From positions 1 to 24,822 of IMG/VR virus record IMGVR_UViG_3300025103_000148: a stretch of DNA of 24,822 nt. The stretch is one strand, 5' to 3'. Shown in pieces: positions 4,056 to 23,976 of this stretch. The DNA is from a virus. Its lineage: Duplodnaviria; Caudoviricetes. Position 1 is the first letter of the stretch; every line of letters begins with the position of its first letter. The notes beneath the pieces are model-generated. The model did no database searches. It was not told the DNA's origin and saw nothing but the letters and a program-made list of their open reading frames with translations. Made by a program: the position numbers and the translations under genes.

Positions 4056-4444
4056 TATCGTATCCTCTCTAATCTAACGGGTACTTCAATTATTTGTTCA
4101 GTGTTTCTGATACGAAATGCAACAGTAACATCAAGGCGGTTCTTGTCATTGTCAGAATTTATCAATATATCAATAACCTCAATTCGTTTTTCATATATGT
4201 CTAGTGTATGACGAATTGCTTGTTCTACTCTAACTTCGGTGAGTGGTGAGGGGTTTTCAAATAGTTGGTCAGAAATTCGGCATTCCACATCAGGTTGCAT
4301 CAACCTTTCAAATCTCGATGTTAAGACCAAATTCCGAACAGACCGTTTTATCGCAATATCGTCTGTTAAAATATTAACATCACCGCTAATAGGATTGCGG
4401 GTAAAGTCTAGGTCTATATCAGAAAATCTGTTAGTTTTTGCCAT
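4055..4444 (-). CDS. gp25: baseplate wedge subunit gp25 (sheath initiator, GPW/gp25 family)
   Basis: 129 aa: FSDIDLDF..NP.SGD, AIKRSVRNLVLT..FER, YEKRIEV, ending LERIR; TAATG coupling to gp6. Confidence 0.93.
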   Translation of the reverse strand: MAKTNRFSDIDLDFTRNPISGDVNILTDDIAIKRSVRNLVLTSRFERLMQPDVECRISDQLFENPSPLTEVRVEQAIRHTLDIYEKRIEVIDILINSDNDKNRLDVTVAFRIRNTEQIIEVPVRLERIR

Positions 4445-4445
4445 G

Positions 4446-5165
4446 TTATTTAATTTTCATCTTTTTCATTTGTTCTCTGTCCAATTCAATTTGAAGTTTA
4501 TTTCTGGCAGCAATCAATAGGTCTGGAATATTAGATTCCACTATTTCATCAACCTTACTCCATGAACACCATTGACACATAACAAAACCACTAAAATAGT
4601 TATTCTTATATAGCGGAATAATAGAATATGCCAACACATTGGCAGCCATTAATTGTTGTTTTGAGTAATTATCACCATCTTCGATTGGAAGATTAAATGT
4701 ACACTTTCCATCTTTAGTTTTTTCTAAAAGATGATGCATTGTGGACATTTGTAAGTCTCTCCAATTTGGAGATTCGGGAGATACACCAGTTCTTACAGAT
4801 TCGTGGGTCATTGTTAATTTTGCCATAGAATTTCCGTCAAAGAAACTACCACCATTATGGAATTGAACAACTTGTGTTCTAGCACAATCTAATTCAACTC
4901 GAAGTTCAGTTAAAATTTCATGAACTCTACTATTACATCTCCAATAGTTGTTGGGGAGATATGTTTTTTTCTTTTTTTTCCTAGTTTCTATTGCTTTATA
5001 TAAAACAGGTAATGCAAAAAATACACCGGCAACCAATGCAACTGCAACTAAACCCACTTCCATCCAAGAACCAACTATATCAACGCCTCCGACTTCATTG
5101 TCAGTTAATTGAGTATCATACTGGGCTTGAATGTTATTTAATATTGATGTGATATAATATATCAT
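4446..5165 (-). CDS. single-pass membrane protein with GAF-like C-terminal domain; candidate T4 gp t-like holin
   Basis: One hydrophobic helix (VGLVAVALVAGVFFALPVLY) followed by RKKKKK, then an alpha/beta domain with RTQVVQFHNGG and YSIIPLYKNNYFSGFVMCQW. GGAG SD upstream. Confidence 0.5.
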   Translation of the reverse strand: MIYYITSILNNIQAQYDTQLTDNEVGGVDIVGSWMEVGLVAVALVAGVFFALPVLYKAIETRKKKKKTYLPNNYWRCNSRVHEILTELRVELDCARTQVVQFHNGGSFFDGNSMAKLTMTHESVRTGVSPESPNWRDLQMSTMHHLLEKTKDGKCTFNLPIEDGDNYSKQQLMAANVLAYSIIPLYKNNYFSGFVMCQWCSWSKVDEIVESNIPDLLIAARNKLQIELDREQMKKMKIK

Positions 5166-5198
5166 TATTTCTCCGAATAGTATAGTATTTCTTCATTT

Positions 5199-5205
5199 TA
5201 TGTAT
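5199..5205 (-). promoter_or_regulatory. ATACATA, candidate late-promoter box
   Basis: Intergenic, 34 nt upstream of the ATG at 5165. The same heptamer recurs upstream of other genes and resembles the T4 late box TATAAATA. Confidence 0.4.
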
Positions 5206-5213
5206 GAATCAAT

Positions 5214-6131
5214 TTAAATAACAATACCATATGAACCACCATCAATTTTAATTAGATGGTCATGTGTCACATCAGAAGTTAACCCCAATGAGGACTCTAT
5301 TGTTTTAAATCTTGTTTCGATAGCGGCCGCTGCCCCTTGAGCCGCTTCAGCGTGGGCCGCACCTTGTGTTCCATCACCAGTTACTCCCTCCATGATTTGG
5401 TCCATGTCAACATCAATCACATCAGGAAGTTTATCATGTATTTTTTGTGGAAGATTTTGAGTGTTTATTGCTTTCTTTAGTGCAGGGCTTGCAATATTAT
5501 TTTCAATAAATGTTTTTGCAAAACAATCACCATCTGGACTTGTCATGGATGATACTCCAGAACCAAGGCCCTTCTTTACAACATAACTAAATGCTTTGTC
5601 GAAATTTGCATTGTCACTATTCCTAATATTATTAAGATTGGTTGCGGTCTGCTGTGCTTGGTTAATCAAATTACCAAGATTTCCAGCCTGGTCACCATTG
5701 TTGATAGCAGTCGTAATCTGTGACATCAAACCTTTTGCTGTTGTTAAATCATCTTTACTTTTTGTGATTCCTTCAAACATCTGTGAGAAATTATCTTGCT
5801 TTTTGTTTTGCATGGATTCTTTATCACTATTGAACGCTCCTGCAATCCCTATGATTTTTGAAAATTCAGCAACATCACCCTTTCCTGAAAGTTTATTAGA
5901 GTGACTTTGGAAATCACCTAACATTGCATTGATACCCTGTAAGGTTTCTGTCATACTTCCAGTTGGGTCAATATCATCAGGTACAGAACTTGGCATTCCA
6001 CCAACCAAATCACCAATATCTCCACCCACAGGATTTTTAAATGCTTTCCCGTTCATCACTGCATCCATGACTTGTCGGGTGCCTTTTTCAATGTCGATTC
6101 CTTTTGGAGTACAATCGCCTATTAAACCCAT
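5214..6131 (-). CDS. hypothetical protein, probably virion/baseplate associated
   Basis: 305 aa, helical and N/Q/A-rich, AGGAG SD, TGATG coupling. Ends in IKIDGGSY, a DGGxY-type motif common near the C-termini of phage fibre/virion proteins. Lies between PAAR and gp25. Confidence 0.7.
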   Translation of the reverse strand: MGLIGDCTPKGIDIEKGTRQVMDAVMNGKAFKNPVGGDIGDLVGGMPSSVPDDIDPTGSMTETLQGINAMLGDFQSHSNKLSGKGDVAEFSKIIGIAGAFNSDKESMQNKKQDNFSQMFEGITKSKDDLTTAKGLMSQITTAINNGDQAGNLGNLINQAQQTATNLNNIRNSDNANFDKAFSYVVKKGLGSGVSSMTSPDGDCFAKTFIENNIASPALKKAINTQNLPQKIHDKLPDVIDVDMDQIMEGVTGDGTQGAAHAEAAQGAAAAIETRFKTIESSLGLTSDVTHDHLIKIDGGSYGIVI

Positions 6132-6376
6132 CAGTTATCCTCCTTGTCTATGAATATTTCTTTACCAAGAACAGGACTACTCTTCCACGGTTGACCTTTT
6201 GGTTGACCAATCATTGAAGGACACCAATCTCCACCGAAATGACCTTTGGATTTCATGTCCTTCAGCCAATCTTCTCCAAAATTAGCAATTAAAAAATCAT
6301 CACGCTTTTCACTGTGAGTGTTGTGATAGTATCTGCTTTGGTATACTACCTGTTCGAATGGTACAAATTGTTTCAC
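6131..6376 (-). CDS. hypothetical protein (81 aa; start reassigned to GTG 6376)
   Basis: GGAGG lies 5 nt before GTG at 6376, just after the PAAR stop. This avoids the 95-nt overlap implied by the track start at 6472. Confidence 0.6.
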   Translation of the reverse strand: MKQFVPFEQVVYQSRYYHNTHSEKRDDFLIANFGEDWLKDMKSKGHFGGDWCPSMIGQPKGQPWKSSPVLGKEIFIDKEDN

Positions 6377-6377
6377 A

Positions 6378-6665
6378 TCAACCTCCCGCAAAAACATTTC
6401 CAGACCCACTCGCACATGCAGAACCACATGCAACGGGGTCACCAATTCTTGCGAGTTGTAAACTATTAACAAATACCGTACTAGAACCTGCGGCTAGTGT
6501 ACTACCATGACACGGAGGTCCACAACAATGACTTGACCAACTATCTCCCTGCCTGTGAGCAGGAATTCCATTGATAAAAACATTTGGTGAGGCCTGATTG
6601 TTGGGTCTTGAACCAAAACATCCATGACCTGTACAAACATCTCCTAATCTGTGTACTGCTGGCAT
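6378..6665 (-). CDS. gp5.4: PAAR-repeat tail spike tip protein (gp5.4-like)
   Basis: 95 aa: MPAVHRLGD.CTGH, VFING.PAHRQGD, GSSTVFVN...ARIGD.V.CG; directly after gp5; AGGAG SD. Confidence 0.95.
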   Translation of the reverse strand: MPAVHRLGDVCTGHGCFGSRPNNQASPNVFINGIPAHRQGDSWSSHCCGPPCHGSTLAAGSSTVFVNSLQLARIGDPVACGSACASGSGNVFAGG

Positions 6666-6674
6666 TACTTTCTC

Positions 6675-8039
6675 CTAGTTAATGTGAACCGTGCTACCCT
6701 GAATGACTGTTCTAGAATTACTCTTAAAGAGGTGGGTGGTTTGTGAAAGCATATTAGTATGCAATTTAACATTCGAAGTTCTGAATCCTGTCGTAGTAGA
6801 TTCAATAATATTTTTCCAAGCCTCTTTCTTGTAAGTCATATCTGTTTTAACATGTGTGTCTTTACCACTATGGGAAAACCGTCTCTTCCCGACCCGTTCT
6901 GTCATATTGCCTGTAATATCTAGGGTATAATTTCCGTTCACATACCCATTCACATTACCTTTATGTAATGTATAATTCAAATCACCCTTATCAATCTCAA
7001 GGTTTACATTAGAATTAGCACCAAGTTGAATGTCAATATTATTGTCCGACTCAGAATCTGAATTGACTAAAATTTTAAGACCTTTGTCAATCGTAGTTGT
7101 TTCCTTACCATCGATATGAGTGTATTTGTCTTTTAGGATAATTTCATAATCATCCAATACAACCTTTGTTACCCTAGTTCCATTCGGATGAATTTCTTCA
7201 AATGTTCCACTTCGATGATATTGATGAAGTCTTTCTGCTCCAGGCGTATCATCTACCTCAAAAGTGTGTCCTGATTCAGATTCATATACATGGTTGTGTG
7301 GGTATTGTGTTGCATATGGTGTATTGGGTTCTGTCCACTTCTCTTTGTATGTTCCATCCGTTCTAGGATTTCCACCTACTGCAACAACTCCTAGATGAGA
7401 TTTACCAGGCGGAACAGAGTTTTTCTTTTTGAATGCTTTTGGAACATCTTTATCCTGTTCATCTTTTTTCAGTTGAACTATAGTCTCATCTATTGTTTCG
7501 TTTCGTGCAAGTCTGTTTGTATCTGGTTCATCGAGAGCCGCTCTGTGCGGGCCACCTCCTGTATGTTTAGGATAGTTCTTGCCCTTCTTTTCGTTTTCAA
7601 GTTCTGCACCTTTACCATCTCTGTGATAAATTTGCTTTTTGAATTCGTCTTTGGGCGCCCCCTCTAATTCGTCACTTGTTCGTGGGTCATTGAAGCCGGT
7701 TTTAATATCGGCCTTCTCTTCTGGAATACCACCAATCGAACCCATAATAACGGGTTCTTGTGAAGATGCACCATCACGGAAAAAACCAACAACCCAAGAG
7801 CCAGGAATTAAACCAGTTGGTGAATTACCAATACCACTAATAGCGGCACTAGTAATTGGTTGAACAGGATAAGCCCAAGGAAGATGTTCGGTTTTAATGT
7901 TTTTCTTATCATCAATATGATAACCAAGAATTCGAACACGACAACGACCCAACATTAATGGGTCATCAATGTCTTCTACAACTCCTTGCCACCAAATAAA
8001 CGAGTGACCAACAAAATCTCTAGGGGTTTCATTAGGCAT
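6675..8039 (-). CDS. gp5: baseplate hub / tail spike gp5 (OB-fold plus beta-helix, no lysozyme domain apparent)
   Basis: WWQGVVEDIDDPLMLGRCRVRILGYH...LPWA...GSWVVGFFRDG..QEPVIMG (OB-fold) and YPHNHVYESESGHTFEVDDTPGAERLHQYHRSGTFEEIHPNG. Confidence 0.95.
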   Translation of the reverse strand: MPNETPRDFVGHSFIWWQGVVEDIDDPLMLGRCRVRILGYHIDDKKNIKTEHLPWAYPVQPITSAAISGIGNSPTGLIPGSWVVGFFRDGASSQEPVIMGSIGGIPEEKADIKTGFNDPRTSDELEGAPKDEFKKQIYHRDGKGAELENEKKGKNYPKHTGGGPHRAALDEPDTNRLARNETIDETIVQLKKDEQDKDVPKAFKKKNSVPPGKSHLGVVAVGGNPRTDGTYKEKWTEPNTPYATQYPHNHVYESESGHTFEVDDTPGAERLHQYHRSGTFEEIHPNGTRVTKVVLDDYEIILKDKYTHIDGKETTTIDKGLKILVNSDSESDNNIDIQLGANSNVNLEIDKGDLNYTLHKGNVNGYVNGNYTLDITGNMTERVGKRRFSHSGKDTHVKTDMTYKKEAWKNIIESTTTGFRTSNVKLHTNMLSQTTHLFKSNSRTVIQGSTVHIN

Positions 8040-8961
8040 CTGATTTCTTCTTTGTCTTTCCTAAGTTTTTAAAACCATTCTTAATCTTAATCTGCGATAT
8101 AATTCTCTTAGTCATTGGACTTGTTAATTCACTAGCAAATCCGTTTCTTCCAAAGATTTCTTTTCGTTCTTCTGTATCTAGATGCTCTTTCATCTCTTCG
8201 ATAAGTTCTACGATTTCTTCAATTGCAGTCTCATATCGTTTACCATTTATCAACATCCATCCAACAACACCAATGGTGGCTAAGAAGCCCACAATTAAAA
8301 CAATTAAACCAACCATAGCAATTTCTTCGAGATAGTATTGTGATGCGGCCGCAAAACCAACAGTAAGCATACCAACGGCTAAAACAATTGCACCAAGCCT
8401 ACCATTCACCCAAAAGGCAATGAAGGCACCACCCACTAACATTCCAAACCCTATTACAAAGAATAGAGTTATGAAACTATGTAAATTTTCAAGTGCTTCT
8501 TTCCGAACTTCCCTATCGGACTGTTCGTACTCTGCGACCAAATCCTCTAGTTGTTCTATCTGACCCACAGCGGCTGCAACTCTGTTGTTTGCCGCTTCTA
8601 AATCTTCTAGAGATTCGTCTATCCGAATTTGTTCTTTCTGTGCATCGTCTACCGTTTCTTTGATTTCCTCTGCGGAATTCTCGATACTGTCGAGAGTCGG
8701 GTCGATGTTGTAATTTCTGTCCTCTGGAACGAGAGCGATATCGTTCAGAATTGCATCTGCTTTCTGGTCTATCGTTTCCAAGTCGTTCCCGATGACTTCT
8801 GATGCGTTCGTTATCTCGTCCGTCTGTTCTCTCTGCTCCCTCACGCTGTCCACCACGGTTGAAGCGGTGTTCTCTGGATGGCCGTTCATGTCTTGCAGTG
8901 CTTCGCAACTGAGTAAAGTCAAACTGCATAGTGCGATTATTGTTAATGTTTTCTTCATCAT
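8032..8961 (-). CDS. lipoprotein with acidic coiled coil and three C-terminal TM helices; candidate spanin-like envelope protein
   Basis: GAGGTG SD; MMKKTLTIIALCSLTLLS-C lipobox-like signal; ~130 aa D/E-rich helical region; three hydrophobic segments (FITLFFVIGFGMLVGGAFIAFWV, LGAIVLAVGMLTVGFAAA, IAMVGLIVLIVGFLATIGVVGWMLI). Confidence 0.75.
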   Translation of the reverse strand: MMKKTLTIIALCSLTLLSCEALQDMNGHPENTASTVVDSVREQREQTDEITNASEVIGNDLETIDQKADAILNDIALVPEDRNYNIDPTLDSIENSAEEIKETVDDAQKEQIRIDESLEDLEAANNRVAAAVGQIEQLEDLVAEYEQSDREVRKEALENLHSFITLFFVIGFGMLVGGAFIAFWVNGRLGAIVLAVGMLTVGFAAASQYYLEEIAMVGLIVLIVGFLATIGVVGWMLINGKRYETAIEEIVELIEEMKEHLDTEERKEIFGRNGFASELTSPMTKRIISQIKIKNGFKNLGKTKKKSDA

Positions 8962-9025
8962 GTCTCACCTCATTCTGTGGTGGAGCAACACTAACCACCA
9001 TTCCCAATATTAATGCCTTTAACAT
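8513..9025 (-). CDS. probable overprinted Arg-rich protein with hydrophobic N-terminus (170 aa)
   Basis: Starts 7 nt after the previous stop, at an ATACATA box. N-terminus is MLKALILGMVVSVAPP. The frame stays open for ~149 codons inside the lipoprotein gene, where stops would be expected frequently. Confidence 0.55.
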   Translation of the reverse strand: MLKALILGMVVSVAPPQNEVRHDEENINNNRTMQFDFTQLRSTARHERPSREHRFNRGGQREGAERTDGRDNERIRSHRERLGNDRPESRCNSERYRSRSRGQKLQHRPDSRQYREFRRGNQRNGRRCTERTNSDRRISRRFRSGKQQSCSRCGSDRTTRGFGRRVRTVR

Positions 9026-9031
9026 ATGTAT
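9025..9031 (-). promoter_or_regulatory. ATACATA, candidate late-promoter box
   Basis: Lies in the short gap between the stop at 9033 and the ATG at 9025, overlapping the A of the ATG. Confidence 0.35.
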
Positions 9032-9032
9032 C

Positions 9033-10961
9033 TCACTTTCTCTTATGTCGTAGGTAAACCATCTCTTGAGTTATCTTATTTTGTACAATAATGGCTTTTC
9101 TTGGGTATTTGTAAGCAAATTCATAAATTTCCGCACCTTCGCCGGACTCTCTATCAAAATATCTTTTCCAGTGTTCAAATTTCTTTTTACCCTGAACACA
9201 CTTATAGTATACATCAGGTGATACTTCAAACACATCACAGCCAGCAAATTTCTTTCTTTTCTTCTTTACTGGTGGGTCTTCGCCAGGAGCAATGCCTGCA
9301 ACTTCACCACCACCAACATTGTTGGCAGCGGCATCAACGGATTCTGTAACCTTTTCAATTTCGTTATAGGGATACCCACGAAGTGGATTGACTAATAAAC
9401 TCTTTTTATTCTTTCTACCACATCGTTTATGAATAGTACATGCATCATCATCTGATATTTCTTCTTCAATGGATTCTTTGATGCCTTTCTTCTTTCTCCA
9501 TCCAAGAACAGTATGAGCATCATTAACTTGGTCAGCCCAATTGCCTGGTCCAGTAGTTGCTTTTCTTGCTTTTGGATTTGCCTTCATTGCTTCGCCAGCA
9601 TCTTTTATGATATATTGCAATTCATCTTTTGATAAATCCCAAAATCTGATATTTTCTATACGAGCGGCACCTCTTGGTCTACCATCGCCCATTTTCCATT
9701 TTGTTGCTTCATCCATTTCAACGGATTCTGGGTACATAGGATTTGTAAGTGGTCTGGTCTTCCTTGCAAAAGTCTTTAGAACATCTCCAACCTTTGCATC
9801 TGGGTCAAGAACGATAGTGAATCCCTTTCTTTGACCACCACGATTGGATGATTCTTTTCCCGAATTATCTCTTGTGAGATTCGCCGCAACGACCTTGCCC
9901 TTTTTGTCTACGATTGCGTATACATCTTTTCTTCGTTCATCCAGTTCAACGGATTCTTTGATACCAAGAGTTTGGGTCTTGGTACTAAGACCATCCATTA
10001 TATCTTTGAGGGTCTTAGTGTCGTTGGAATTGAGTTTGAGTTTTTTAGCAATTTCATCAGAAGATTTACCTTCTTTATCCCACATTTTCATTATGGTATT
10101 GCCGTATTTTTTCAGTAACTCCAGTTGCTTCCCTTCATCCAGTTCAACGGATTCATTTTTTGCTTTTGTCAATGCCCAAACTTTAGATACGAATTGTGTG
10201 AACTCACCAATTTTTAATCTGCCAGATTTCTCAGAGGAGTTGATTTTTGCGTTTCCTGTATAACTATATTTCACTACATCTTTTGGTTCGATAGTAAAAA
10301 ACCACTCACCCCGACCACGGTTTTGGTGGTATGCCCATCCCGCATCAATACTAGTATCTACCTCATCCGGCATATCTTTAGTAACATAATTACCAAATGA
10401 ATCTGTCCATTTTGTTCTTCCAAATGTGAGGTCGATAGCCCATATAATCTTTATTGCTTCGGCATGTCTTTTCTCAAGTTCTCTCCTGAAATCTTTTGCT
10501 TCATCCAGTTCAACGGATTCTTTGATACCAAGAGTTTGATTAATGTGAAGGGCAACTGATTGGGGTGTACCTTCAAACTCACCTTTACCGTGGTCAAAAG
10601 TAACTCTGACATTTCCGTGTTTGCGAGTTGTCAGAAGCATATGTTTGAATGGGGTTTTGGTAACTCCACCAGTCTTTTTGATGTTGATACCATAACCTTT
10701 TTTAGAACCGATTTCGGCATTCTTAATCACACTGTCTGCTGTCCATGCTTCATCCAGTTCAACGGATTCTTTTAATTGTTTAGCAGCCTCTTTGGGGTCA
10801 ACACCATCGTAGTAAAGTTGTAACATGTCTGTTGGTTTAACTTTCGAATAAGAACCCCTTAATTTTTTGAGTTCTTTTTCAAACACATCAAACCACTTAA
10901 TCAGTGGTTTTTGGTCATCTTCAGATAGGGTTAGTAACTTTATGATATTTTCTTTTAACAT
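9033..10961 (-). CDS. modular polyprotein A (642 aa) with ESVELDE linkers; probable head-internal protein
   Basis: Four ESVELDE, one ESVEMDE, plus ESIEEE and ESVD separate mutually unrelated small domains. Confidence 0.85.
   Translation of the reverse strand: MLKENIIKLLTLSEDDQKPLIKWFDVFEKELKKLRGSYSKVKPTDMLQLYYDGVDPKEAAKQLKESVELDEAWTADSVIKNAEIGSKKGYGINIKKTGGVTKTPFKHMLLTTRKHGNVRVTFDHGKGEFEGTPQSVALHINQTLGIKESVELDEAKDFRRELEKRHAEAIKIIWAIDLTFGRTKWTDSFGNYVTKDMPDEVDTSIDAGWAYHQNRGRGEWFFTIEPKDVVKYSYTGNAKINSSEKSGRLKIGEFTQFVSKVWALTKAKNESVELDEGKQLELLKKYGNTIMKMWDKEGKSSDEIAKKLKLNSNDTKTLKDIMDGLSTKTQTLGIKESVELDERRKDVYAIVDKKGKVVAANLTRDNSGKESSNRGGQRKGFTIVLDPDAKVGDVLKTFARKTRPLTNPMYPESVEMDEATKWKMGDGRPRGAARIENIRFWDLSKDELQYIIKDAGEAMKANPKARKATTGPGNWADQVNDAHTVLGWRKKKGIKESIEEEISDDDACTIHKRCGRKNKKSLLVNPLRGYPYNEIEKVTESVDAAANNVGGGEVAGIAPGEDPPVKKKRKKFAGCDVFEVSPDVYYKCVQGKKKFEHWKRYFDRESGEGAEIYEFAYKYPRKAIIVQNKITQEMVYLRHKRK
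9708..10769 (-). repeat. dispersed in-frame 21-nt direct repeat GAATCCGTTGAACTGGATGAA (ESVELDE)
   Basis: Exact copies at 9936-9956, 10134-10154, 10500-10520 and 10749-10769, and a 1-mismatch copy at 9708-9728. The copies at 9936-9974 and 10500-10538 share 39 identical nt (QTLGIKESVELDE). Confidence 0.97.
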
Positions 10962-11512
10962 TAAACCTTCTCCACATTTGAATAAGAGATTACAATATTT
11001 GTACCATTAGCATTATGTATATGAAAAAGGGGCACACCGAGTTCAGAACCAAATGAATTAATATCTTCATCTAGTTTGATAATTTCATTAGTTTCAGATA
11101 TATCATCTGTCACATGATATGTCCCTCTTGGGATTGTGTTGTGGGTGACATCTTCCTTGATGTCTTCGATATTGAATTCGCCTTCAAACACTTGGTCGAT
11201 GAACATTTGTTCGATATCAACTTCAGTAGCCCCATCTTTCTTTGCTTCCTCTCTCAGAAGCCAAAGGGCAGCGGCAAAAGAGCCAATCCTTGAACGAACG
11301 AATGGTACTTTGTTGAACACCCGTTTTACACTAGCAATAAGCCTATTAAAAGCACCATAGGAATTCTTTTGCTTCCTAGTTCTATCTTCTGGTTCTACAA
11401 TTACCTTACCATTTTCGTCAATGACACCTTCTTTGTAGGCATCCCACGATTTCCATTTAATGGTTAGTCCTTTGATAAACCTGTATGCAACATAAATGTC
11501 AACTGCACCCAT
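10961..11512 (-). CDS. conserved T4-like hypothetical (virion-associated) protein
   Basis: 183 aa. The D.YVAYRFIK.L...W..WDAYK.GVIDENG...SY..F.RL...VKR pattern is recognisable from T4-like phages. TAATG coupling at both ends. Confidence 0.8.
   Translation of the reverse strand: MGAVDIYVAYRFIKGLTIKWKSWDAYKEGVIDENGKVIVEPEDRTRKQKNSYGAFNRLIASVKRVFNKVPFVRSRIGSFAAALWLLREEAKKDGATEVDIEQMFIDQVFEGEFNIEDIKEDVTHNTIPRGTYHVTDDISETNEIIKLDEDINSFGSELGVPLFHIHNANGTNIVISYSNVEKV
11014..11020 (-). promoter_or_regulatory. ATACATA, candidate late-promoter box upstream of polyprotein A
   Basis: 53 nt upstream of the ATG at 10961, inside the 3' end of the preceding gene. Confidence 0.3.
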
Positions 11513-11892
11513 TATAGATTCCTTAAAACATTAGCGATATGTTCATCTATAGTTATGTTTTCGAACAACTCACCGGCATCCATATGGGTTGGAACATATT
11601 CCAGATATATTAAGAAAGTCTTAAGATATTCGTGTAAGTCTCGTTCCATCTTGAAAAATAACATTCTAATTCCCGGCTGAACACCAAACACATTGCAAAA
11701 AATAATAATGTGATTCAGGATGAGTCTTTCCCGAAGCACATTATTTCGTTGATACTTTCTAAACAATCTTTTAATATACTTGGTTCGATTTAAATCTTCT
11801 TGAAATTCATCAACGCCCATGCAATGAGGGTTTTCGTAAGCCTTCATTGCGTATAATATATAATTGCTATCCGTTAATACACCGAATTCCAT
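11512..11892 (-). CDS. conserved T4-like/cyanophage hypothetical protein (DUF7207-like)
   Basis: 126 aa: NYILYAMKAYENP.C....F.EDL.R.KYIKRLF.KY.....L.ERLILNHIII..NVFG. Confidence 0.8.
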   Translation of the reverse strand: MEFGVLTDSNYILYAMKAYENPHCMGVDEFQEDLNRTKYIKRLFRKYQRNNVLRERLILNHIIIFCNVFGVQPGIRMLFFKMERDLHEYLKTFLIYLEYVPTHMDAGELFENITIDEHIANVLRNL

Positions 11893-11914
11893 ATCAAATA
11901 AAAGTCCTTAGTTA

Positions 11915-12262
11915 TTAACGGTATTTCTTAGGCAACAACTCGTCCCAATTTCCTTCAGCGGCCTCTGCTTCAAATTCATCTCGCAATCTCATTGCAACAT
12001 ATTCTCTAACATCTTTGGGGAACATTGTTCTTGCATCATTCCCTGTGGAGAATTCTTTTGAATAAAGTTTAGCGGCATCATCCACAGCATACATGAAAAG
12101 TTTAACAGCCTTTTTGCTATCATACTTGTCCTGTGCCATCTTGGTGATTGCATTCTTATAGATGGGTTGCAATCTTTGTCGATACAGTTGTGCATGATTC
12201 ACGGTGAACACATAAAGTTCATCACCTTCTATAGATTCTGAGAATTCCCTATAAGATTTCAT
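11915..12262 (-). CDS. small probable internal head protein with capsid-targeting-like N-terminus
   Basis: Begins MKSYREFSES (compare the T4 IP CTS MKTYQEFIAE); 115 aa, helical. Confidence 0.8.
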   Translation of the reverse strand: MKSYREFSESIEGDELYVFTVNHAQLYRQRLQPIYKNAITKMAQDKYDSKKAVKLFMYAVDDAAKLYSKEFSTGNDARTMFPKDVREYVAMRLRDEFEAEAAEGNWDELLPKKYR

Positions 12263-13107
12263 TATTCTGATTCCAATTCTTTGGATACCATGCCTTGAAA
12301 TTTATGAATTTCTGCATTAGAATAAATCTTATTGGTTGTCCTGAGTTTATCCATGATGTCTGCTCGTAAATTATTTTGACTAGTTTTATGAGTCTCTGCA
12401 ACATCTTTTGCTAATGAAGTGAACTCATCAGGTGTTATCTGATTATTAGTGACACTTCGGATGCTGGCTAAAATATCAGGCATTTCTTGTGTTAGTTTGT
12501 CTTGTTCGCCAAATGGATTTACATTAGTACGCTTTGGTTGTTCCATGTTATTGCTCTCCTCTAAATCGTTTTTGCTGTTGCCAACAATTTCTAAAGTTTT
12601 ATCTGCCTTCTTAGGCTTCTTACCTTTATATGTAGTGACTTGTTCTTCAGTCGAATCGTCTGAATCTTTCTTCTTTTTCTTCTCTTCATCTGGAGCAGGT
12701 GCGGCGTCACCACTAGCAGGTGCTTTTGCATCAGCGGCCACTTTAATTGCTTTGGCCTTTGCTTTATTGTAAAGTGCAACAGTTTTAGCATCTACATTAT
12801 CATAAATCTCAATGGTTTCTTTAAGAGCAAATTCACCCGCAGTGTTTTTATTTATCATTTTACCAAGCATCTCTTTCGCTCTATAATCTAAATCTCTCCA
12901 GTCATCTCTAGAAAAAGAAGATGGTAATCTTGCATCTTTTAAAAAGTCTACTCTTTCTTTACGAGAAAGTTGATTCCAGTGAAGTGTCTCTGCTTCGTTT
13001 ATATGAGTATTTTTATCAAAACACTCATGCACAATATCTCTAAAGGATTTTTCTTTATCAGAATTTAAATCAAACATCTTTTGTTCTCGCATCAAGTGTT
13101 CTCGCAT
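12262..13107 (-). CDS. hypothetical charged, low-complexity protein, probably head core/internal (start uncertain: 13107, 13092 or 13077)
   Basis: 281 aa ORF with K/A/D-rich disordered middle and INE, LKE and LEE sites; possible internal start at 12546 with AGGAG. Confidence 0.7.
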   Translation of the reverse strand: MREHLMREQKMFDLNSDKEKSFRDIVHECFDKNTHINEAETLHWNQLSRKERVDFLKDARLPSSFSRDDWRDLDYRAKEMLGKMINKNTAGEFALKETIEIYDNVDAKTVALYNKAKAKAIKVAADAKAPASGDAAPAPDEEKKKKKDSDDSTEEQVTTYKGKKPKKADKTLEIVGNSKNDLEESNNMEQPKRTNVNPFGEQDKLTQEMPDILASIRSVTNNQITPDEFTSLAKDVAETHKTSQNNLRADIMDKLRTTNKIYSNAEIHKFQGMVSKELESE

Positions 13108-14314
13108 CGAATGATAGACGAGCAGACTTATTTAATTGAGGGGTTGTGTCTTTAGAAAGATGTTTAACATATAAATCCATAACGGATTCATTTCTTCTCA
13201 TCATATCAAGGGATAACTTCATATATTCCTTGTGGTTTCTTCCGTATTTTGCAATGATGGCATCGGCAATATCCTTCGGGTCGGGGTCGCCACTATTGTA
13301 CAGTTGCTTGTGTGTATTACTGATAATATTATCTAATCCTTGGGCGCCATTTGAAGATTGCATTTCTCGATACCACTTTTTATCCATTGCTTTCTTGAGT
13401 TCATCGTGTATATCCATAAAGAATTCTTTCATCTTACCTTCATCCAGTTCAACGGATTCGTCCATAACAAATTGTGTTTGCTTGGAATCAATAAAATTCT
13501 TGTACTCTTTCTCGACATACTTTTTTACTTTCTCAAGTTCTTTCTTTGAACCATTGAAAGAAATATCCCAACCCGCACCACCAGAACCACTGCCACTATA
13601 ACTCTTGAATTTCTTATCGAGGTCTTTTTGAATTTGGCGACCTAGTGTACTAGTATACTCTGGTTTGTTGAATTCGAATGAAAGAACCCAATGTGATTCT
13701 TCGTCTAGTTCAACGGATTCACCTAAAAGACCGTGGCTTCGTGCATACTTACTGATTGCCCAATCCTTATGGGGATGTGAACCATAGTAAGCAAAAATCT
13801 TTACTTTGCCTCTCTTCGGGTCACTTGTAATTGCCATTACATATCCATCGACACCTGGCGAGCCTGGTTCTGGACCACCACCGGCAGCCTTACCAGTAAA
13901 TTGAAAAACACCAAACACCGAGTTACCACCAAGAACAGACAACTTAGAATTGACCATTGGGAACTTTCCGCTTTCGATACCCGCTTTGATTCTTGCCTCA
14001 GGTTCGTGGGCGTGTGGTAGTCGTTTCTCGTCTAGTTCAACGGATTCATCATACGGACCATATCCTTTGGGTGTTACTTCAGAAGTTGAATGAGAGAATT
14101 CACCTTTATTCTTGTGTGCATATTTCCCGATTGCTTTTTTGTGCATGTCCGTGGTCATACCAGTAATAACGACTCTATACTTGCCCTTGTATCTTTCGAC
14201 ACCAGAGTTTGCCAGCCCTACACCAGAATTCTCGACATCCTTTGCAAATTGTTTTGCATTTCTTTCGTTTTTAAAATCCCAAAATACTTTTGGTTCTTCT
14301 CTTCCTTCATTCAT
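13070..14314 (-). CDS. modular polyprotein B (414 aa) with ESVELDE linkers
   Basis: Three ESVELDE plus one ESVMD separate unrelated domains at 109, 87 and 90 aa spacing. Its start overlaps the upstream stop. Confidence 0.85.
   Translation of the reverse strand: MNEGREEPKVFWDFKNERNAKQFAKDVENSGVGLANSGVERYKGKYRVVITGMTTDMHKKAIGKYAHKNKGEFSHSTSEVTPKGYGPYDESVELDEKRLPHAHEPEARIKAGIESGKFPMVNSKLSVLGGNSVFGVFQFTGKAAGGGPEPGSPGVDGYVMAITSDPKRGKVKIFAYYGSHPHKDWAISKYARSHGLLGESVELDEESHWVLSFEFNKPEYTSTLGRQIQKDLDKKFKSYSGSGSGGAGWDISFNGSKKELEKVKKYVEKEYKNFIDSKQTQFVMDESVELDEGKMKEFFMDIHDELKKAMDKKWYREMQSSNGAQGLDNIISNTHKQLYNSGDPDPKDIADAIIAKYGRNHKEYMKLSLDMMRRNESVMDLYVKHLSKDTTPQLNKSARLSFDARTLDARTKDV
13082..13108 (-). repeat. 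tandem duplication with 15-nt period (DART-L-DART)
   Basis: tgttctcgcatc at 13082-13093 and 13097-13108. Confidence 0.9.
13175..14047 (-). repeat. ESVELDE-encoding repeat copies in polyprotein B
   Basis: 13439-13459 is identical to the 21-mer in polyprotein A. 13700-13720 has 2 mismatches, 14027-14047 has 3 mismatches, and 13175-13189 is a truncated copy (ESVMD). Confidence 0.95.
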
Positions 14315-15078
14315 TTAGTTTCACCCTTCCAATTTTTATCGACATAATTGAAGAACTCTTTCTTCTTGTCGTCTTCTAAATCATCGGGGGAACTGGCACC
14401 GAACTTCTTGAGTGCGGCTTTAAAGAACTTCTCGTACTCTTCATCTTTACCTTCTGTTGCACAATTACAACCTTCCCATTCTCCGCCTTCTTTTATATAC
14501 CAACGAGTTGCTAATGCAAGAGATGCAAGAGATGGATGGTCGGTAATATTTCTTTCTGCTTCCACCAATGAACTCTCCCACAAAGTAGAATTCGTGGGTT
14601 TGCATTGGTCAGCAACAGTGAATGCTTCATTAACTGCAAGGAAATAATAGAGAGAATCGGGGGTAGATTCTAGGTCATCATAACTTGCTTCTTTAAGTTT
14701 ATTAAATGCATCAATGTAACTACCTTCAACAATTAAAGAATGAATGTTTCGAAGGAATTCGTTTTCATCTAGTAAAGATTCACTGAGTGATTCTATTACT
14801 AGAGGATTCGCTTTTACATCTGCTGTAGTAGCAAAGTCGTAAAACATTTCAATAAGAGGTCTGTGTTCAAACATCCAATCATTAAACTCTCTAGAGTTCA
14901 TATTCAGAACATATCGTTTAGATACGCCCCCAAGCGATTCAGCAATTCCCATTCGAGTATCGTTTCCTGAAATAACAGACCACAAAACATCTAAATGAAT
15001 ATCTCTGATGTGCGTTCCCGCAACATCATTTTCTCTAAACTCTTGTACAGATTCAGCGATTTGTCTATACGATTTCAT
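14311..15078 (-). CDS. probable internal head protein, multi-module, CTS-like N-terminus
   Basis: Starts MKSYRQIAES, has several [IL]xE sites, and ends in a YEKFFKAALKKFGASSP.DL.DDKKKEFFNYVDKNW module. Confidence 0.8.
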   Translation of the reverse strand: MKSYRQIAESVQEFRENDVAGTHIRDIHLDVLWSVISGNDTRMGIAESLGGVSKRYVLNMNSREFNDWMFEHRPLIEMFYDFATTADVKANPLVIESLSESLLDENEFLRNIHSLIVEGSYIDAFNKLKEASYDDLESTPDSLYYFLAVNEAFTVADQCKPTNSTLWESSLVEAERNITDHPSLASLALATRWYIKEGGEWEGCNCATEGKDEEYEKFFKAALKKFGASSPDDLEDDKKKEFFNYVDKNWKGETK

Positions 15079-17180
15079 AACTTTAAACCCCTTTGATTAC
15101 TTAATGACCAACTTTCATTCTCCAATATGCTTTTCCATTTGGAATCTAATGTATTTAGTGTTATTCTTGCTTTCGGGAATTCGTTTTCATCTAAAGTAAA
15201 TTTCTTATTAACATTAACACTATAATTGAGGATTTCTAAGAATTTTTTACCCAATAAGACCTCATATACATTTTCATCTCGGTCTGCAAGACTGAACTCA
15301 ACATCAGTATATTTAGTACCATTAATAGTCATGTCCATTTTCACAACCTGTCTATCTCTTCTTTCCCCTGCACCAACATGAATATCAACAACTTCATGAA
15401 CTGGTTTTGTTATTCGTTTCTTTCCAAACAAATCAAATGATACCTTGTTGCCTTTTACTTCAATGTTTTCAGCATGAAGAGCGTTCCAAGAACCATTACC
15501 TGTATCTAGTTTGGCTTTTACCTTTTCACCACCAATTTCAACCCATTCAATATACCCCACATCTCTACTTGAAAACACCCAATTGTCTCTATCTGAAATG
15601 TAATCAATGATATGGTTAGTTAAATCTTGACCAGTCACCACGCCCTTTCGAACATAATAACTTTGGTATCCATCCATGCCTGAGCCAGGTGAACCATTAA
15701 TTTCTAATGCGTATAATTTTCCATTTACTGTGATGTGGTCAACACCACAAAGATAGCAACCAGACATCTTAGAAACCTTGTGTACGAAATCTTTTTCTTC
15801 TTGAGATAGTTTATGTGGTTTAGTTTCATTACCCAGAGACTTGTTTGTTCGGAAATCTTTTCCACCCTTCATTCGTTTTGCTGAAGCAATAATTTTGCCA
15901 TTTAAAACGAGGGTTCGAACATCGAACTTAATTTCCATATATTCCTGAATAATCAATTCAGCATCAAATTTCCAAAGAGACTGAAGAACTGATTTAAGTG
16001 ATTCATATGATTCGACTTTAGAAACACCGATGCCTTCAGCACCAGTTAAAGTCTTAACAATCATTGGGAATTTTCCACCAATCTTTTTAACAGCAAGGTC
16101 AATAGATTCTTCGTTGTTAACAAATGCTGTTCTTGGTGAGGGAATCCCATGTCGTTCAAACGAAAGAGCCGTTGCTAGTTTATTCTGGCAAAATCTCATT
16201 GCTTCTGCACTGTTGATAACAAATGCCCCTGCTTGTTCAAACACCTGAACCAATCCCAGACCACCATGTGTTACGATTGCAGAACCTCGGACAAACACAA
16301 CTGTGTTATCCACATTTAATTTAACTTTTCTCTTGTCTCCATCATAATTGTGGATGATAAGAGAATTATCTGTGGCGTCTTCATCCGCAACATATGCTTT
16401 ATCTACAAGAATAGGATAAAATGATATCCCTGAAGTCTTGCAGGCCTTCTCTAATTTCTCTGCTGTTCCTTTAAGTTCATCATCACCCTGTTTAGTAAGA
16501 ACAACAACAGTTAATTTGCCTGATTTCTTTCTAAGTTTACCAAAAGAAATGGGGTCATGTGCTTCTCGAACACCTGCTGATTTTCGAAGAGCATTATATA
16601 TTTTCTTTTTTTCGGCATTTGATGCTGAAGAAGGCATACTTTCTGAAAATGAATCCCAGTCACCATCAGCGGCAAATTGCCTCACCTTTGAACCAGATAC
16701 ACCACTAACATCTGTTGCATCGGGGTCACGATTCCCTGCACTTACAACTTCAAATTCAAAATTTAAGGCCGTCTTTGGGTCTTTACCATTGATATATGGT
16801 TTAACCATATTTTCAAATTCTCTCACTCGGTCTGAACCCACAACCATAATAACCTTTGCAACACCTCTATCACTCATCCACTTAAGAGCCGCAAAGGGAT
16901 TGTGTATTGAAGAATTATCAACAATCTCCACATTCCTGAAAGCCTTCTTCATAAATTTAACTTTATCTTTGTGCTTTATTGGGTTTTTTGCATCACCCTC
17001 TTTAGCACTAGGAAAAACCATAGCAGTTCCACGAACTCTTGAAGCAACACTTGCAACCTTATCAATGAGTAACTGATGCCCAGAGGTGGGGGGCTGGAAA
17101 CGACCAAAAGTGAAGACAATGGTATCACCTTTGGCTTCTACCATTTTCTTCTTCGTACTGTTTTGTTCGTTGTGTTTCAA
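15075..17180 (-). CDS. triple fusion: cytidylyltransferase-like NTase + RimK-type ATP-grasp ligase + retropepsin-like aspartic protease
   Basis: NTase: FTFGRFQPPTSGH...VVGSDR...SAGNRDPDA.DVSGVSGSK.R. RimK: NKL.T...F...GIPSPRT...FPMIVKTLTGAEGIGV...IIQEY...FDVR..V...DFRTN.SLG...GVD...LEINGSPG. Protease: KAKLDTGNG...LHA...RxxV...F.LADR...VLLG. GGAGGT SD favours TTG at 17180 over GTG at 17186. Confidence 0.9.
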   Translation of the reverse strand: MKHNEQNSTKKKMVEAKGDTIVFTFGRFQPPTSGHQLLIDKVASVASRVRGTAMVFPSAKEGDAKNPIKHKDKVKFMKKAFRNVEIVDNSSIHNPFAALKWMSDRGVAKVIMVVGSDRVREFENMVKPYINGKDPKTALNFEFEVVSAGNRDPDATDVSGVSGSKVRQFAADGDWDSFSESMPSSASNAEKKKIYNALRKSAGVREAHDPISFGKLRKKSGKLTVVVLTKQGDDELKGTAEKLEKACKTSGISFYPILVDKAYVADEDATDNSLIIHNYDGDKRKVKLNVDNTVVFVRGSAIVTHGGLGLVQVFEQAGAFVINSAEAMRFCQNKLATALSFERHGIPSPRTAFVNNEESIDLAVKKIGGKFPMIVKTLTGAEGIGVSKVESYESLKSVLQSLWKFDAELIIQEYMEIKFDVRTLVLNGKIIASAKRMKGGKDFRTNKSLGNETKPHKLSQEEKDFVHKVSKMSGCYLCGVDHITVNGKLYALEINGSPGSGMDGYQSYYVRKGVVTGQDLTNHIIDYISDRDNWVFSSRDVGYIEWVEIGGEKVKAKLDTGNGSWNALHAENIEVKGNKVSFDLFGKKRITKPVHEVVDIHVGAGERRDRQVVKMDMTINGTKYTDVEFSLADRDENVYEVLLGKKFLEILNYSVNVNKKFTLDENEFPKARITLNTLDSKWKSILENESWSLSNQRGLKL

Positions 17181-17195
17181 AATCACCTCCTAGTT

Positions 17196-17233: not shown

Positions 17234-17365
17234 TCACTTATTCCAAGGCGCTTTTGATTTAATCCAGTTCCACAGAGGAACGCCAACTAGGGCCCCACCG
17301 ACAAAGCATAAAATGCTCCACCAAACGGTCCCCAAACTTTCGCTAATAAATGCTAATGTGTTCAT
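17234..17365 (-). CDS. small single-pass membrane protein (43 aa), not in the ORF track
   Basis: MNTLAFISESLGTVWWSILCFVGGALVGVPLWNWIKSKAPWNK; AAGGAG SD; ATGA overlap with the FtsZ-like stop. Confidence 0.75.
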   Translation of the reverse strand: MNTLAFISESLGTVWWSILCFVGGALVGVPLWNWIKSKAPWNK

Positions 17366-18546
17366 AACTTTTCTCCTTTATTAAGTTGCTGAAGTCTCTT
17401 CAACGGCACACTCAAACCCGAAACTATAGTATACAGTCTCAGGCTATCTTTATTATCCTCATATATTCCACGATGCAACACTGCATTGGGACACAAAGAA
17501 GACAATGTATCAAAACCATAGGATAAACTATCCATCAATCCTGGCGTATTTTCCATAATATCTTTACTTCCAACTGCCACACATGCGGCAACCTTGGAAT
17601 CAGAAAGTTCTGCTTCACTGAGAAGTGTTTTCTCAATATTAGATTTAATTGCACTAGATACTTTCTGTTCATCTCCAAACTCTTTAAGTTTTGCAACGCC
17701 CATTACTAATACACCACCACATCTTAATACACCCGCATAATCTGTGGGGTCAAAGGATGTATATGGTGAAGCATTACTAGTAAGAACATTAAAGACATGG
17801 AACAAACCAGATATAGTATTGTTTACTGTAGGCCAGAATTGCTTAACAGTTAATCCACGGTACATTTTTTCAATTTTAGAATTGTCTATAATAAGAAGTG
17901 GTGAAATCGCACCAGTTTCTGCACACTCCCCAACAGTTTTTAAAACTTCGTGTGCATTTGAAGACACTTGTGGGGATGTCGCTTCGCCCCGTGTGGGTAA
18001 AGACATAACTACACCCACTCGTTTTTCTGCATCATCGTGACCAATGTATTCCATATACTTCTTTGCGGTTTCGATTAAGACAAGAACAGAACCACTTCCA
18101 CTCCCACCTCCTGCACCAACACAAACAAAAACATGGTCTACATTGTTGCCATAAATTCTTCGCATAAGGTCAAATACATTTTGTTTATATTTGTTTGCCG
18201 CATCGTGGCCTTTTTCCATATTCTTTCCTGCACCTTGTTCTCCAACATTAAGAAGAAACTTTTGGTTTGCTGGCAAATCAAGTGTGTCTAAGTCATGACT
18301 AGAAGTATTTACTGCGATACACTTTTTATATCCTCGGTCATAGAATGCCTTTGCAATTCTTCCACCGCCCTGCCCAGAGCCAATCCATGCAAAAGTTTGT
18401 GAACCTCCCGATTCATCTTCAATTGCAGTTTCTTCATCATCTGGAATTTCGTAGTCTTCCAAATCAATATCTGGAATTTCCAAATCTGGAATCTGAATAT
18501 CCAGTTCTTCTACTGGTTGTTCTTCTACTGGTTGTTCTTCTGTCAT
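17362..18546 (-). CDS. FtsZ/tubulin-superfamily GTPase (TubZ/CetZ/PhuZ-like) with acidic N-terminal extension
   Basis: IGSGQGGGRIA (T1 loop), AVNT, GAGKN, GAGGGSGSG (signature loop variant), IIDN and SFDPTDY (T7-like). Start placed at MTEEQ (18546) after AAGGA; the track start is 18600. Confidence 0.9.
   Translation of the reverse strand: MTEEQPVEEQPVEELDIQIPDLEIPDIDLEDYEIPDDEETAIEDESGGSQTFAWIGSGQGGGRIAKAFYDRGYKKCIAVNTSSHDLDTLDLPANQKFLLNVGEQGAGKNMEKGHDAANKYKQNVFDLMRRIYGNNVDHVFVCVGAGGGSGSGSVLVLIETAKKYMEYIGHDDAEKRVGVVMSLPTRGEATSPQVSSNAHEVLKTVGECAETGAISPLLIIDNSKIEKMYRGLTVKQFWPTVNNTISGLFHVFNVLTSNASPYTSFDPTDYAGVLRCGGVLVMGVAKLKEFGDEQKVSSAIKSNIEKTLLSEAELSDSKVAACVAVGSKDIMENTPGLMDSLSYGFDTLSSLCPNAVLHRGIYEDNKDSLRLYTIVSGLSVPLKRLQQLNKGEKL
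18505..18541 (-). repeat. 15-nt tandem repeat encoding EEQPVEEQPVEE
   Basis: ttcttctactggttg repeated about 2.5 times. Confidence 0.9.
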
Positions 18547-18601
18547 TTTTTTATTCCTTTTAGGGAAATATACCCTACCTGACCTTCTAGGAGCATACAT
18601 G

Positions 18602-19810
18602 TTATTCCCAGTTTTTTGCGGCAGTAAAATTGGCTCTAGAAAATTCTAATCTATCCACTAATTTTATTGCATTATTTGAGGTATGGTCTACTGCTACAAA
18701 TCCTTCAGGTGCAGTAGCCTCAAACCCATCTCCCTTTTTAATAAAAGTTCCGATGTTCTTTACAGTCTGTAATTTTGCAAGAATAACCAACTTAATTTCA
18801 TTGAGCAAACTGTACAACTCAAATGCTAAGATGATGTTTGTTTTATTTTTCTTTAAAAATGCCATAGTTTGTTTCATTTCATTCTTTTTTCGTGATTTAG
18901 CAGTTTCCTGACTCAGTGTGTCAATTGCCTTAGTGTATTCACCTTCTATGTAGTCAACTAAACCTTGGTAGGTGTTGTTCATAGTACCTGCTCTGACATT
19001 TCTGTTGGAGTAAACCTTAATATATGCAACCAATTTAGTATTAGACATAAGAGAATCTAAAAATTTCTTGATTTTACCTATGGCTCGGCCGCCATTTCCA
19101 ATCAGTGTGTCAAGGTCATCACTTTCAGTTTTTGTAAATGTTGCTGTTCCTGATGCATCTACAAAATTAGCATCCTGAAACCAAACTTTAGAAGTCTTTC
19201 TAAGAGAGGAAACATCAGGACTAAATGATGCCGACATGGAACTCATATCTGTTCCTGTATATTTTGTATGAAACACAATACCGATGTTTGCTCTTTTAAC
19301 TTCTTTAGCAGAACCAGAATTAGAAGGAATGGCATAAGTGATAGTATTGGGAGTAAAGGTGATGTGGGTTTGACCATCAATTTTTTGAGTGGAAGTTTTA
19401 CCTTTTGTGAACATGACATCACCCTGAAGAATGTCTTTGATACCTAAAAGTTTTAGATTTGCTAAGGCAACTTTAAGAGTATCAGATAATCCTTTTGAGT
19501 GTCCGTGATTCGCATCGATGTCAGCATTGGTATAATTAATCTTTGGAGTCTTGTTGAAAACACTTTTTGTTCCGACAAAGAACTTCTTATTTTCTGGATT
19601 GATACCACAGAAAACAGCAGGGGCACCATCCCATTTAACAGTAACATTGAAACTAGATGATGTGTTGCCACTTAACATGTCCAAAACAGACTCAGCAAAT
19701 TTTAATGCATTGATACCACCCGAAGACCCGTCATTAAATATAGAATCTTCAAGATGCTCCATGTGAAGATTCTTGGATTCGTTTAGTAAGAATGTATTGA
19801 ATGATTTCAT
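18602..19810 (-). CDS. DUF6267-like conserved T4-like phage protein with CTS-like N-terminus
   Basis: MKSFNTFLLNE, then KNLHMEHLED, TVKWDGAPAVFCG.NP...FFVGTKSVFNK, F.PNTITY, PEGFVA and KLVDRLEFSRANF. Confidence 0.85.
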   Translation of the reverse strand: MKSFNTFLLNESKNLHMEHLEDSIFNDGSSGGINALKFAESVLDMLSGNTSSSFNVTVKWDGAPAVFCGINPENKKFFVGTKSVFNKTPKINYTNADIDANHGHSKGLSDTLKVALANLKLLGIKDILQGDVMFTKGKTSTQKIDGQTHITFTPNTITYAIPSNSGSAKEVKRANIGIVFHTKYTGTDMSSMSASFSPDVSSLRKTSKVWFQDANFVDASGTATFTKTESDDLDTLIGNGGRAIGKIKKFLDSLMSNTKLVAYIKVYSNRNVRAGTMNNTYQGLVDYIEGEYTKAIDTLSQETAKSRKKNEMKQTMAFLKKNKTNIILAFELYSLLNEIKLVILAKLQTVKNIGTFIKKGDGFEATAPEGFVAVDHTSNNAIKLVDRLEFSRANFTAAKNWE

Positions 19811-23948: not shown

Positions 23949-23976
23949 ATTGTAACACATATCACAGGTGAGTCAA
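23949..23976 (-). promoter_or_regulatory. sigma70-type promoter
   Basis: TTGACT (23971-23976), a 16-nt spacer, then TACAAT (23949-23954) with an extended TGn -10. Confidence 0.65.

Follow-up and report, generated by a model that had tools for sequence, protein, structure and literature searches.

The stretch of DNA analysed here (IMG/VR record IMGVR_UViG_3300025103_000148, 24,822 nt, hereafter the window) is part of the genome of an uncultured, T4-like marine phage, and two of its open reading frames (ORFs), gene A (9033–10961, minus strand, 642 aa) and gene B (13070–14314, minus strand, 414 aa), consist of small, mutually unrelated protein modules joined by a 21-base word, the linker, which encodes the peptide ESVELDE. 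Gene A comprises modules M0–M5 followed by a short tail and, at the C-terminus, a conserved host domain, and gene B comprises modules B0–B3 and a short tail. The 21-base word is probably the joint at which modules are gained, lost and swapped, likely through the homology-driven recombination that the phage ordinarily uses; in translation it is a predicted cleavage site of the prohead protease, whose cuts would free the modules in the phage head. The silent sites of the linker are identical far beyond codon bias, module boundaries and the breakpoints of indels and swaps lie at the linker, and the same modules occur in many unrelated host genes. The joint is best read as a lineage-homogenised, in-frame stretch of homology, comparable to the promoter early stem-loop (PeSL) cassettes of T4-type phages moved inside a reading frame.

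As counted in the first-pass annotation, the 21-mer is present in five exact copies on the minus strand, starting at 9936, 10134, 10500 and 10749 in gene A and at 13439 in gene B, while its 14-nt core occurs seven times and the 9-mer GAATCCGTT ten times in the window, which is also the whole of the phage record and hence all that a scan of its own genome covers. Eight copies of the 21-mer are found when up to three mismatches are allowed, compared with none in 100 shuffles, and every linker copy lies in frame and encodes ESVELDE or a decayed form of it. The window is moderately AT-rich (GC 0.34–0.42), and in its 22 ORFs, with the linkers left out, TCC accounts for 0.089 of Ser codons and CTG for 0.057 of Leu codons; the chance of one ESVELDE being written with exactly these codons is 9.3 × 10⁻⁴, and, since TCC and CTG are rare in the window ORFs, that of five copies with all codons alike is about 4 × 10⁻⁹. 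For comparison, ES[V/I] peptides in other genes of the window use TCT in six of seven cases. The calculation of synonymous identity from codon usage that had been proposed earlier therefore gives a clear answer, namely that codon bias does not explain the identity of the silent sites.

The same identity extends across the lineage. An exact search of viral contigs with the 21-mer returned 66 loci in many different host genes, and two counts were made against the circularity of such a search. When one ascertaining copy per ORF was removed, TCC was used in 60 of 64 linkers and CTG in 48 of 64 (background 0.085 and 0.064); when loci were taken from a protein search only, in which 24 of 60 loci held such a linker, TCC was used in 27 of 30 linkers, CTG in 23 of 30 and the exact 21-mer in 14 of 30 (background 0.084 and 0.072). 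Other spellings appeared when the Ser and Leu codons were left free. This degenerate scan covered at least 126 loci of about 330 stretches and gave 78 distinct ESVELDE contexts, of which 11 were left out before alleles were counted, as there the peptide follows IG[V/I][V/I] within another conserved domain, which we take to be an HK97-type protease; 52 loci resulted, mainly TCC/CTG (19), TCT/CTT (13) and TCA/CTT (7) among the matches listed. Similarly, in ten records chosen for a non-TCC copy, TCC or CTG was used in none of 24 linker-like sites, the ascertaining copies included. A second spelling, EEVELDE with CTT, surrounds M5 in L239, L243, L245–L249, L251 and L253–L260, and in L253 each of the two spellings flanks one side of M5. 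Among 24 distinct right flanks of M5, 14 are of the EE/ED type and all use CTT, while ten are of the ES type and all use TCC, none of them CTT, so that the same module wears the local spelling. Modules in common with the TCC set were found in 4 of 54 flanks at non-TCC loci, compared with 44 of 48 flanks in the TCC set itself, the latter figure being circular and the comparison therefore not used. The spelling counts come from related loci and hence are not independent events. Within two long records the word is confined to a few genes, with seven copies within 2 kb of one record of 135 kb and three in another of 157 kb. Linker spelling follows the phage lineage, not the module.

Breakpoints between relatives fall at the same word. 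The 47 distinct DNA matches to gene A, each of 100 nt or more at 80% identity or better, with the window's own record and one identical fragment excluded, have 84 informative ends once locus and gene ends are set aside; 72 of these lie within 5 nt of a linker, where 11.5% would be expected. For instance, L228 is 99.3% identical to gene A over 428 nt up to the last base of linker 10500 and then continues with another module; L073 and L075 differ by a single 249-nt indel, which equals 76 aa plus a linker; and L044 and L023 are identical at 1041 of 1047 bases from the linker onward, with four of the six differences in or just past the linker, while their upstream parts are unrelated. In other host genes, the counterparts of M1 and M5 are identical at 82–94% of DNA positions, but only 7–17 of 45 bases match just outside the linkers. 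Among 80 candidates, M1 was found in 62 longer proteins, in which its neighbours form 27 upstream clusters (55 flanks) and 29 downstream clusters (58 flanks), with 21 N-terminal clusters (55), and P0001 contains two copies of it. The orthologs with the same gene ends and a different number or order of modules that the first-pass annotation had called for do exist, as both ends of gene A are retained in four distinct orthologs whose interiors differ. Modules also pass between the two genes: the gene-A ortholog P0063 contains B3 (96%) and B2 (95%) of gene B, and P0066 contains B0 at 95% behind M0, M2 and M3. Relatives of gene B were sought by peptide patterns, and none was found in viral contigs or in cultured phages; no cultured phage matches any module, and the C-terminal host domain alone matches one, Pelagibacter phage HTVC008M, at 38%. 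The linker is almost certainly a site of module gain, loss and swap within and between genes, as judged from these alignments. The breakpoints at the 21-mer confirm what had been expected of them, and the proposal of an in-frame microhomology or recombination site for module shuffling is supported, neither of the two findings that it named as contrary (relatives of fixed module order with synonymously diverged linkers, or codon identity accounted for by genome-wide bias) having been obtained.

At the DNA level, exchange is very probably homology-driven rather than site-specific. An imperfect inverted repeat noted earlier in the linker is indeed present, but it is not required as a signal, as the TCT/CTT and EEVELDE spellings of other lineages break it. 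The repeat also folds weakly (−1.1 to −1.9 kcal/mol, z +0.5 to −1.6, nine stretches), no better than shuffled sequences, and a hairpin or inverted repeat as the required signal was ruled out on both grounds. An attC-like inverse core was likewise ruled out, being found upstream of linkers at the chance level (10 of 113 linkers, compared with 86 of 1020 control sites). Neither tyrosine nor serine recombinases passed the cut-off in five linker-bearing records, all incomplete (the best 75% and 87% complete), where one sub-cut-off match had an E of 5 × 10⁻⁴, and a RecA-family gene is present in four of the five. The weak hairpin, the repeat-breaking spellings, the lack of an excess of inverse cores and the lack of a recombinase over the cut-off in these incomplete records together make a site-specific enzyme unlikely. 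It has been reported that T4 recombination takes place at microhomologies of 6–10 bp (10.1101/2022.04.14.488369) and that PeSL repeats of phages RB49 and phi1 yield deletions and mini-circles (PMC2839356). A crossover between two linkers would delete, duplicate or excise one module and one linker, and, since the unit exchanged is a whole number of codons, the reading frame would survive. Re-entry of the excised unit would take place at a further linker or, with only a few matching bases, at a naturally occurring L/I-X-E site, and repeated exchange would hold one spelling per lineage.

Regarding the peptide, the prohead protease gp21 of T4 is reported to cut after L/I-X-E, gp22 to have a Glu-Ala bond, and core proteins to be cut into several pieces (PMC9026906). 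ESVELDE ends in L-D-E and fits this rule; Ala or Gly directly follows 60 of 118 linkers, and at M1 an L/I/V/M-X-E ending is kept by 55 of the 56 left flanks, including those that have lost the remainder of the linker. A gp21-family protease gene passed the cut-off in three of five records carrying the 21-mer and is absent from the window. In G003, a linker lies within a gene between the portal gene and the gene preceding gp21. From the gene order of T4, this is presumably the position of gp67. The linker peptide is quite likely a gp21 site, a prediction that follows from the motif, and the modules are then likely to be cut free in the head; the same fit likely explains the tolerance of junctions at linkers. 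The exchange role that the first-pass annotation had given to the linker stands, and the fit to the T4 rule had been overlooked. A cut by gp21 after the last Glu would spare the host protein any harm from an insertion and would free domains of 50–120 aa, which may be injected like T4 internal proteins.

The predicted structure of M1 is alpha/beta, with a mean predicted local distance difference test (pLDDT) score of 83.8, and that of M5 is helical (76.0), and both are predicted to fold alone. Foldseek returned no match at E ≤ 0.001 for M1 (BFVD, PDB) or M5 (PDB), the best rows for M1 being uncharacterised phage proteins of 74–76 aa (E 0.017–0.07); ESM Atlas gave no match for M1, and no Pfam family passed the cut-off in genes A and B or their modules. 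Weak HTH, SPOR, RXLR and SpvB rows below the cut-off were not used, the HTH likeness being that of M3. Each T4 internal protein has been reported to block a distinct GmrSD restriction enzyme (PMC12373910), and by analogy the modules may have a counter-restriction role. A more far-reaching picture, offered tentatively, is that of one word with two codes, in which the DNA would be a universal in-frame landing site for circular module-plus-linker units, which would travel among many genes of the head and from lineage to lineage, and the peptide a head-protease site that releases each module, so that phages would draw on a shared, rapidly shuffled pool of small injected counter-defence proteins with no integrase, promoter or targeting peptide of their own.

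Several findings weigh against the proposed joint and its cleavage. Twelve of the 84 match ends lie away from linkers; many of the 47 matches are M5 in related contigs and hence are not independent; and two decayed linkers were counted as linkers. Moreover, alignments that come as far as a linker will extend into it. L044 and L023 differ at two bases directly after the linker, the 249-nt indel between L011 and L025 is offset by about four codons from the linker, and some junctions preserve little of the 21-mer (10–11 of 21 bases). As for the protein, L/I-X-E is a short, common motif, genes A and B start without a T4-type capsid targeting sequence, no clear excess of such starts was found in related linker ORFs (5 of 43, compared with 5 of 131 controls, p = 0.07), and profile scans of the window ORFs revealed neither gp21 nor a recombinase in this 24.8-kb record. 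Junctions with a partial word suggest that new sites were first entered through few common bases, and they also keep alive an unlikely alternative, a passive filter, whereby illegitimate recombination strikes at any position, selection spares only those junctions that are in frame at a protease site, and linker DNA owes its likeness solely to travelling with recently spread modules. Such a filter agrees with insertions at sites little like the 21-mer (left flanks GEFRMDE, SANELNE and QYISMDE), with the off-linker indel of L011/L025, and with the last Glu codon, which has no excess conservation (GAA in 51 of 64, background 0.78). However, M5 takes the resident spelling of each lineage, with one spelling per side in L253, and no letter differs among linkers that join unrelated modules, even though from host to host the modules have changed at 4 of 64 to 12 of 57 same-residue codons; hitchhiking alone is insufficient for this pattern.

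A swap joint that is left uncut, serving as a flexible acidic spacer in a multi-domain protein, is improbable. That genes A and B do not clearly begin with a capsid targeting sequence would suit it, as would hosts that are enzymes (cytidyltransferase-like), but the L/I/V/M-X-E end is kept in nearly all M1 left flanks, Ala or Gly follows half of the linkers, one host stands at the presumed gp67 position, and the word is confined to few genes in the two long records. Still less probable is a dedicated, integron-like site-specific recombinase that recognises the inverted repeat or the GTTGAAC core. The core does fit the integron consensus GTTRRRY, the most conserved bases span the inverted repeat, in 21 of 24 loci TCC is accompanied by a Leu codon ending in G, and the TCA/CTT allele (seven loci) also keeps the pair; on the other hand, the repeat is broken by TCT/CTT, the most frequent of the other alleles (13 of 28 non-TCC loci), by the EEVELDE form and in two of the eight window copies, junctions retain variable lengths of linker, and the hairpin, inverse-core and recombinase results given above point away from such an enzyme. 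It is extremely improbable that codon bias or mRNA structure fixes the silent positions with no role in shuffling: GAA, GTT and GAT are favoured codons anyway, but TCC and CTG are rare here (0.06–0.09), folding is unremarkable, other lineages choose other codons, and breakpoints lie at the linker.

The proposed homology joint resembles several known systems in part. In the PeSL cassettes of RB49 and phi1, variable units of a T4-type genome are likewise bordered by a repeated DNA word; two copies can recombine so that a unit is lost or is released as a mini-circle able to re-enter, and the repeat steers exchange to tolerated places (PMC2839356). The linker also bounds units that one phage has and a relative lacks. 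PeSLs are, however, intergenic promoter–terminator elements of about 100 bp that move whole genes (PMC2839356), whereas the linker has 21 bp, is in frame and translated, and moves domains; promoter- and terminator-like sites occurred at the chance level and not at linkers. Circles of PeSL units have been detected by inverse PCR (PMC2839356), whereas the present system is known from assembled sequence. At the protein level, IPI–IPIII and Alt of T4 are small head proteins cut by gp21 after L/I-X-E and variable between phages (PMC9026906, PMC12373910), and the modules, at 47–124 aa, compare in size with T4 internal proteins of 95, 100 and 193 aa. Each of the latter has a gene to itself and carries a targeting peptide at its N-terminus (PMC9026906), while here many modules share one ORF or sit within core genes, and genes A and B lack a T4-type start. 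From the variable internal-protein loci of T-even phages the present system differs in that its joint is a coding linker. In those loci, cassettes reportedly vary in number and order, shuffling via conserved flanking DNA is said to have been proposed by Repoila et al. in 1994, and the flanks are said to bear promoters and the cassettes to be whole genes.

Polyvalent proteins likewise unite unrelated domains in one polypeptide, with predicted early delivery and proteolytic release (PMC5512222). They are described as very large, with known catalytic domains and often a peptidase of their own, and the word 'linker' is absent from the main text of that article (PMC5512222), while in genes A and B no polyvalent-protein effector domain or embedded peptidase passed the cut-off. 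The linker array also recalls integrons with respect to its exchangeable units and the fit of its core to GTTRRRY. Integron gene cassettes form an array of exchangeable units with a common junction word of that consensus. Unlike them, the linkers have no attC-like inverse core RYYYAAC or hairpin, the junction depends on lineage, and no integrase was found in the five incomplete records or the window ORFs. The system is PeSL-like at the DNA level and likely T4-internal-protein-like at the protein level, but the defining feature of each is lacking, and it is therefore filed under neither. No description of an ESVELDE/EEVELDE linker system was found in the literature searched, which included few subscription papers and no supplements.

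The modules and linkers of gene A, all on the minus strand, are as follows from the N-terminus. M0 (10770–10961) is a 64-aa N-terminal segment that is an internal module of cytidyltransferase-like genes in relatives, and it is joined by an exact 21-mer encoding ESVELDE (10749–10769) to M1 (10521–10748, 76 aa), the predicted self-contained alpha/beta domain. A further exact 21-mer (10500–10520) leads to M2 (10155–10499, 115 aa), which L230 matches from linker to linker at 94.9% of DNA positions, and another (10134–10154) to M3 (9957–10133, 59 aa, but 47 aa in L004), the last 17 bases of which differ in five sequencing runs. The exact copy at 9936–9956 separates M3 from M4 (9729–9935, 69 aa), and a copy with one mismatch, encoding ESVEMDE (9708–9728), separates M4 from M5 (9477–9707, 77 aa), which is predicted to be helical and has ESVELDE-type or EEVELDE-type flanks by lineage. 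The right boundary of M5 is a decayed linker, ESIEEEI (9456–9476), and a second decayed linker, ESVDAAA (9324–9344), precedes the C-terminal host domain. With this decayed linker, the host domain spans 9033–9344; it is a standalone 109-aa gene in L216, in the same gene order (52% over 96 aa). The sole PHROG match in gene A is phrog_3286, of unknown function, at aa 537–571.

Gene B, for which no PHROG family was matched, begins with B0 (14048–14314, minus strand, 89 aa), an internal module that is 95% identical in P0066, P0068 and L268. The linker at 14027–14047, with three silent mismatches, leads to B1 (13721–14026, 102 aa), which lies inside the gene-A ortholog P0065 at 73% identity, and that at 13700–13720, with two silent mismatches, to B2 (13460–13699, 80 aa). 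The exact 21-mer at 13439–13459 joins B2 to B3 (13190–13438, 83 aa), B2 and B3 being the two modules shared with P0063, and the decayed linker ESVMDLY (13169–13189) forms the right boundary of B3; all of these are likewise on the minus strand. The end of gene B overlaps the start of the adjoining ORF by 38 nt (13070–13107).

The first-pass annotation had further reported that two linkers share 39 nt (9936–9974 and 10500–10538). This holds for the window letters, but the extra 18 bases are contradicted by five of the seven sequencing runs. Contigs of runs X1 (possibly the source of the window), X2, X3, X5 and X6 read 12 other letters at 9957–9973, and X2, X3, X5 and X6 come from four studies other than that of X1. 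By eye, 11 of the 12 differing letters equal the base 36 nt further on, and the five-run version is likely a short (36-nt) tandem duplication that ends M3, at 9957–10019; an M3 that is 12 aa shorter in L004 and three further DNA matches that end 36 nt before the linker fit such a duplication. The window letters at 9957–9973 copy the end of M1. One contig of X4 agrees with them and ends at 9974, X7 is uninformative, and among the contigs listed none spans 9974/9975 with the window letters. As the extra bases differ in five of seven runs, the 39-nt version probably either arose as a chimera during assembly or represents a minor recombinant form. Contig ends of X4 at 9974 and 10509 have 30 letters in common, and a direct M1-to-M4 join in this run is a possible 564-nt deletion form, not proven. 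No back-joint marking an excised circle was seen among the joints listed for assembled contigs. Contig joints at linkers have sides of 21–36 letters, perhaps from other organisms, and were not used as support; neither were loose contig ends near linkers (20 of 24 listed, of 44), since some are other linker copies of the same genome.

Most sequencing runs containing window DNA are marine metagenomes. Baseplate wedge and hub genes occupy 2082–8039, and Pfam and PHROG scans identified, after them, DUF7207, DUF6267, a cytidyltransferase–RimK fusion and a tubulin-like gene. The fusion is a single ORF at 15075–17186 that combines a cytidyltransferase-like domain, a RimK-like ATP-grasp domain and a putative zinc protease, and in relatives linker modules are often hosted by cytidyltransferase-like genes. 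The tubulin-like gene (17362–18600) is of the Tubulin/FtsZ family with a TubZ-like C-terminal domain, inside a T4-like phage. A P-loop kinase-like ORF at 23973–24692 has AAA_33 and Zeta_toxin Pfam rows over the cut-off. Five window ORFs (11915–12262, 14311–15078, 18602–19810, 20437–22704 and 23973–24692) start with MKS(F/Y), which resembles the starts of T4 ipI–ipIII, so that the region may encode further head cargo. The neighbouring ORFs at 10961–11512 and 12262–13107 have no linker in the window, whereas their homologs (P0013–P0018, and P0003 and P0007) contain M1, by eye, so that the same hosts would exist in an empty and a filled form. Also by eye, the C-terminal part (14311–14440) of the 255-aa phrog_28651 ORF recurs in the G003 gene preceding gp21 (L210:9735–10184). 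In run X2, very deep short pieces cover 8534–9067, with loose ends near 8845, and part of the 309-aa gene is common to this phage and more abundant sequences.

In practice, assembly across the repeat can go wrong, as the 39-nt extension suggests. If the proposed joint and its cleavage are as described, T4-like phages could renew the protein cargo of their heads with their core genes unbroken, and long 'hypothetical' proteins of marine phages could be divided by rule into small mature products that can be screened against bacterial defences. PeSL-type shuffling, hitherto described between genes, would then have moved inside the reading frame.

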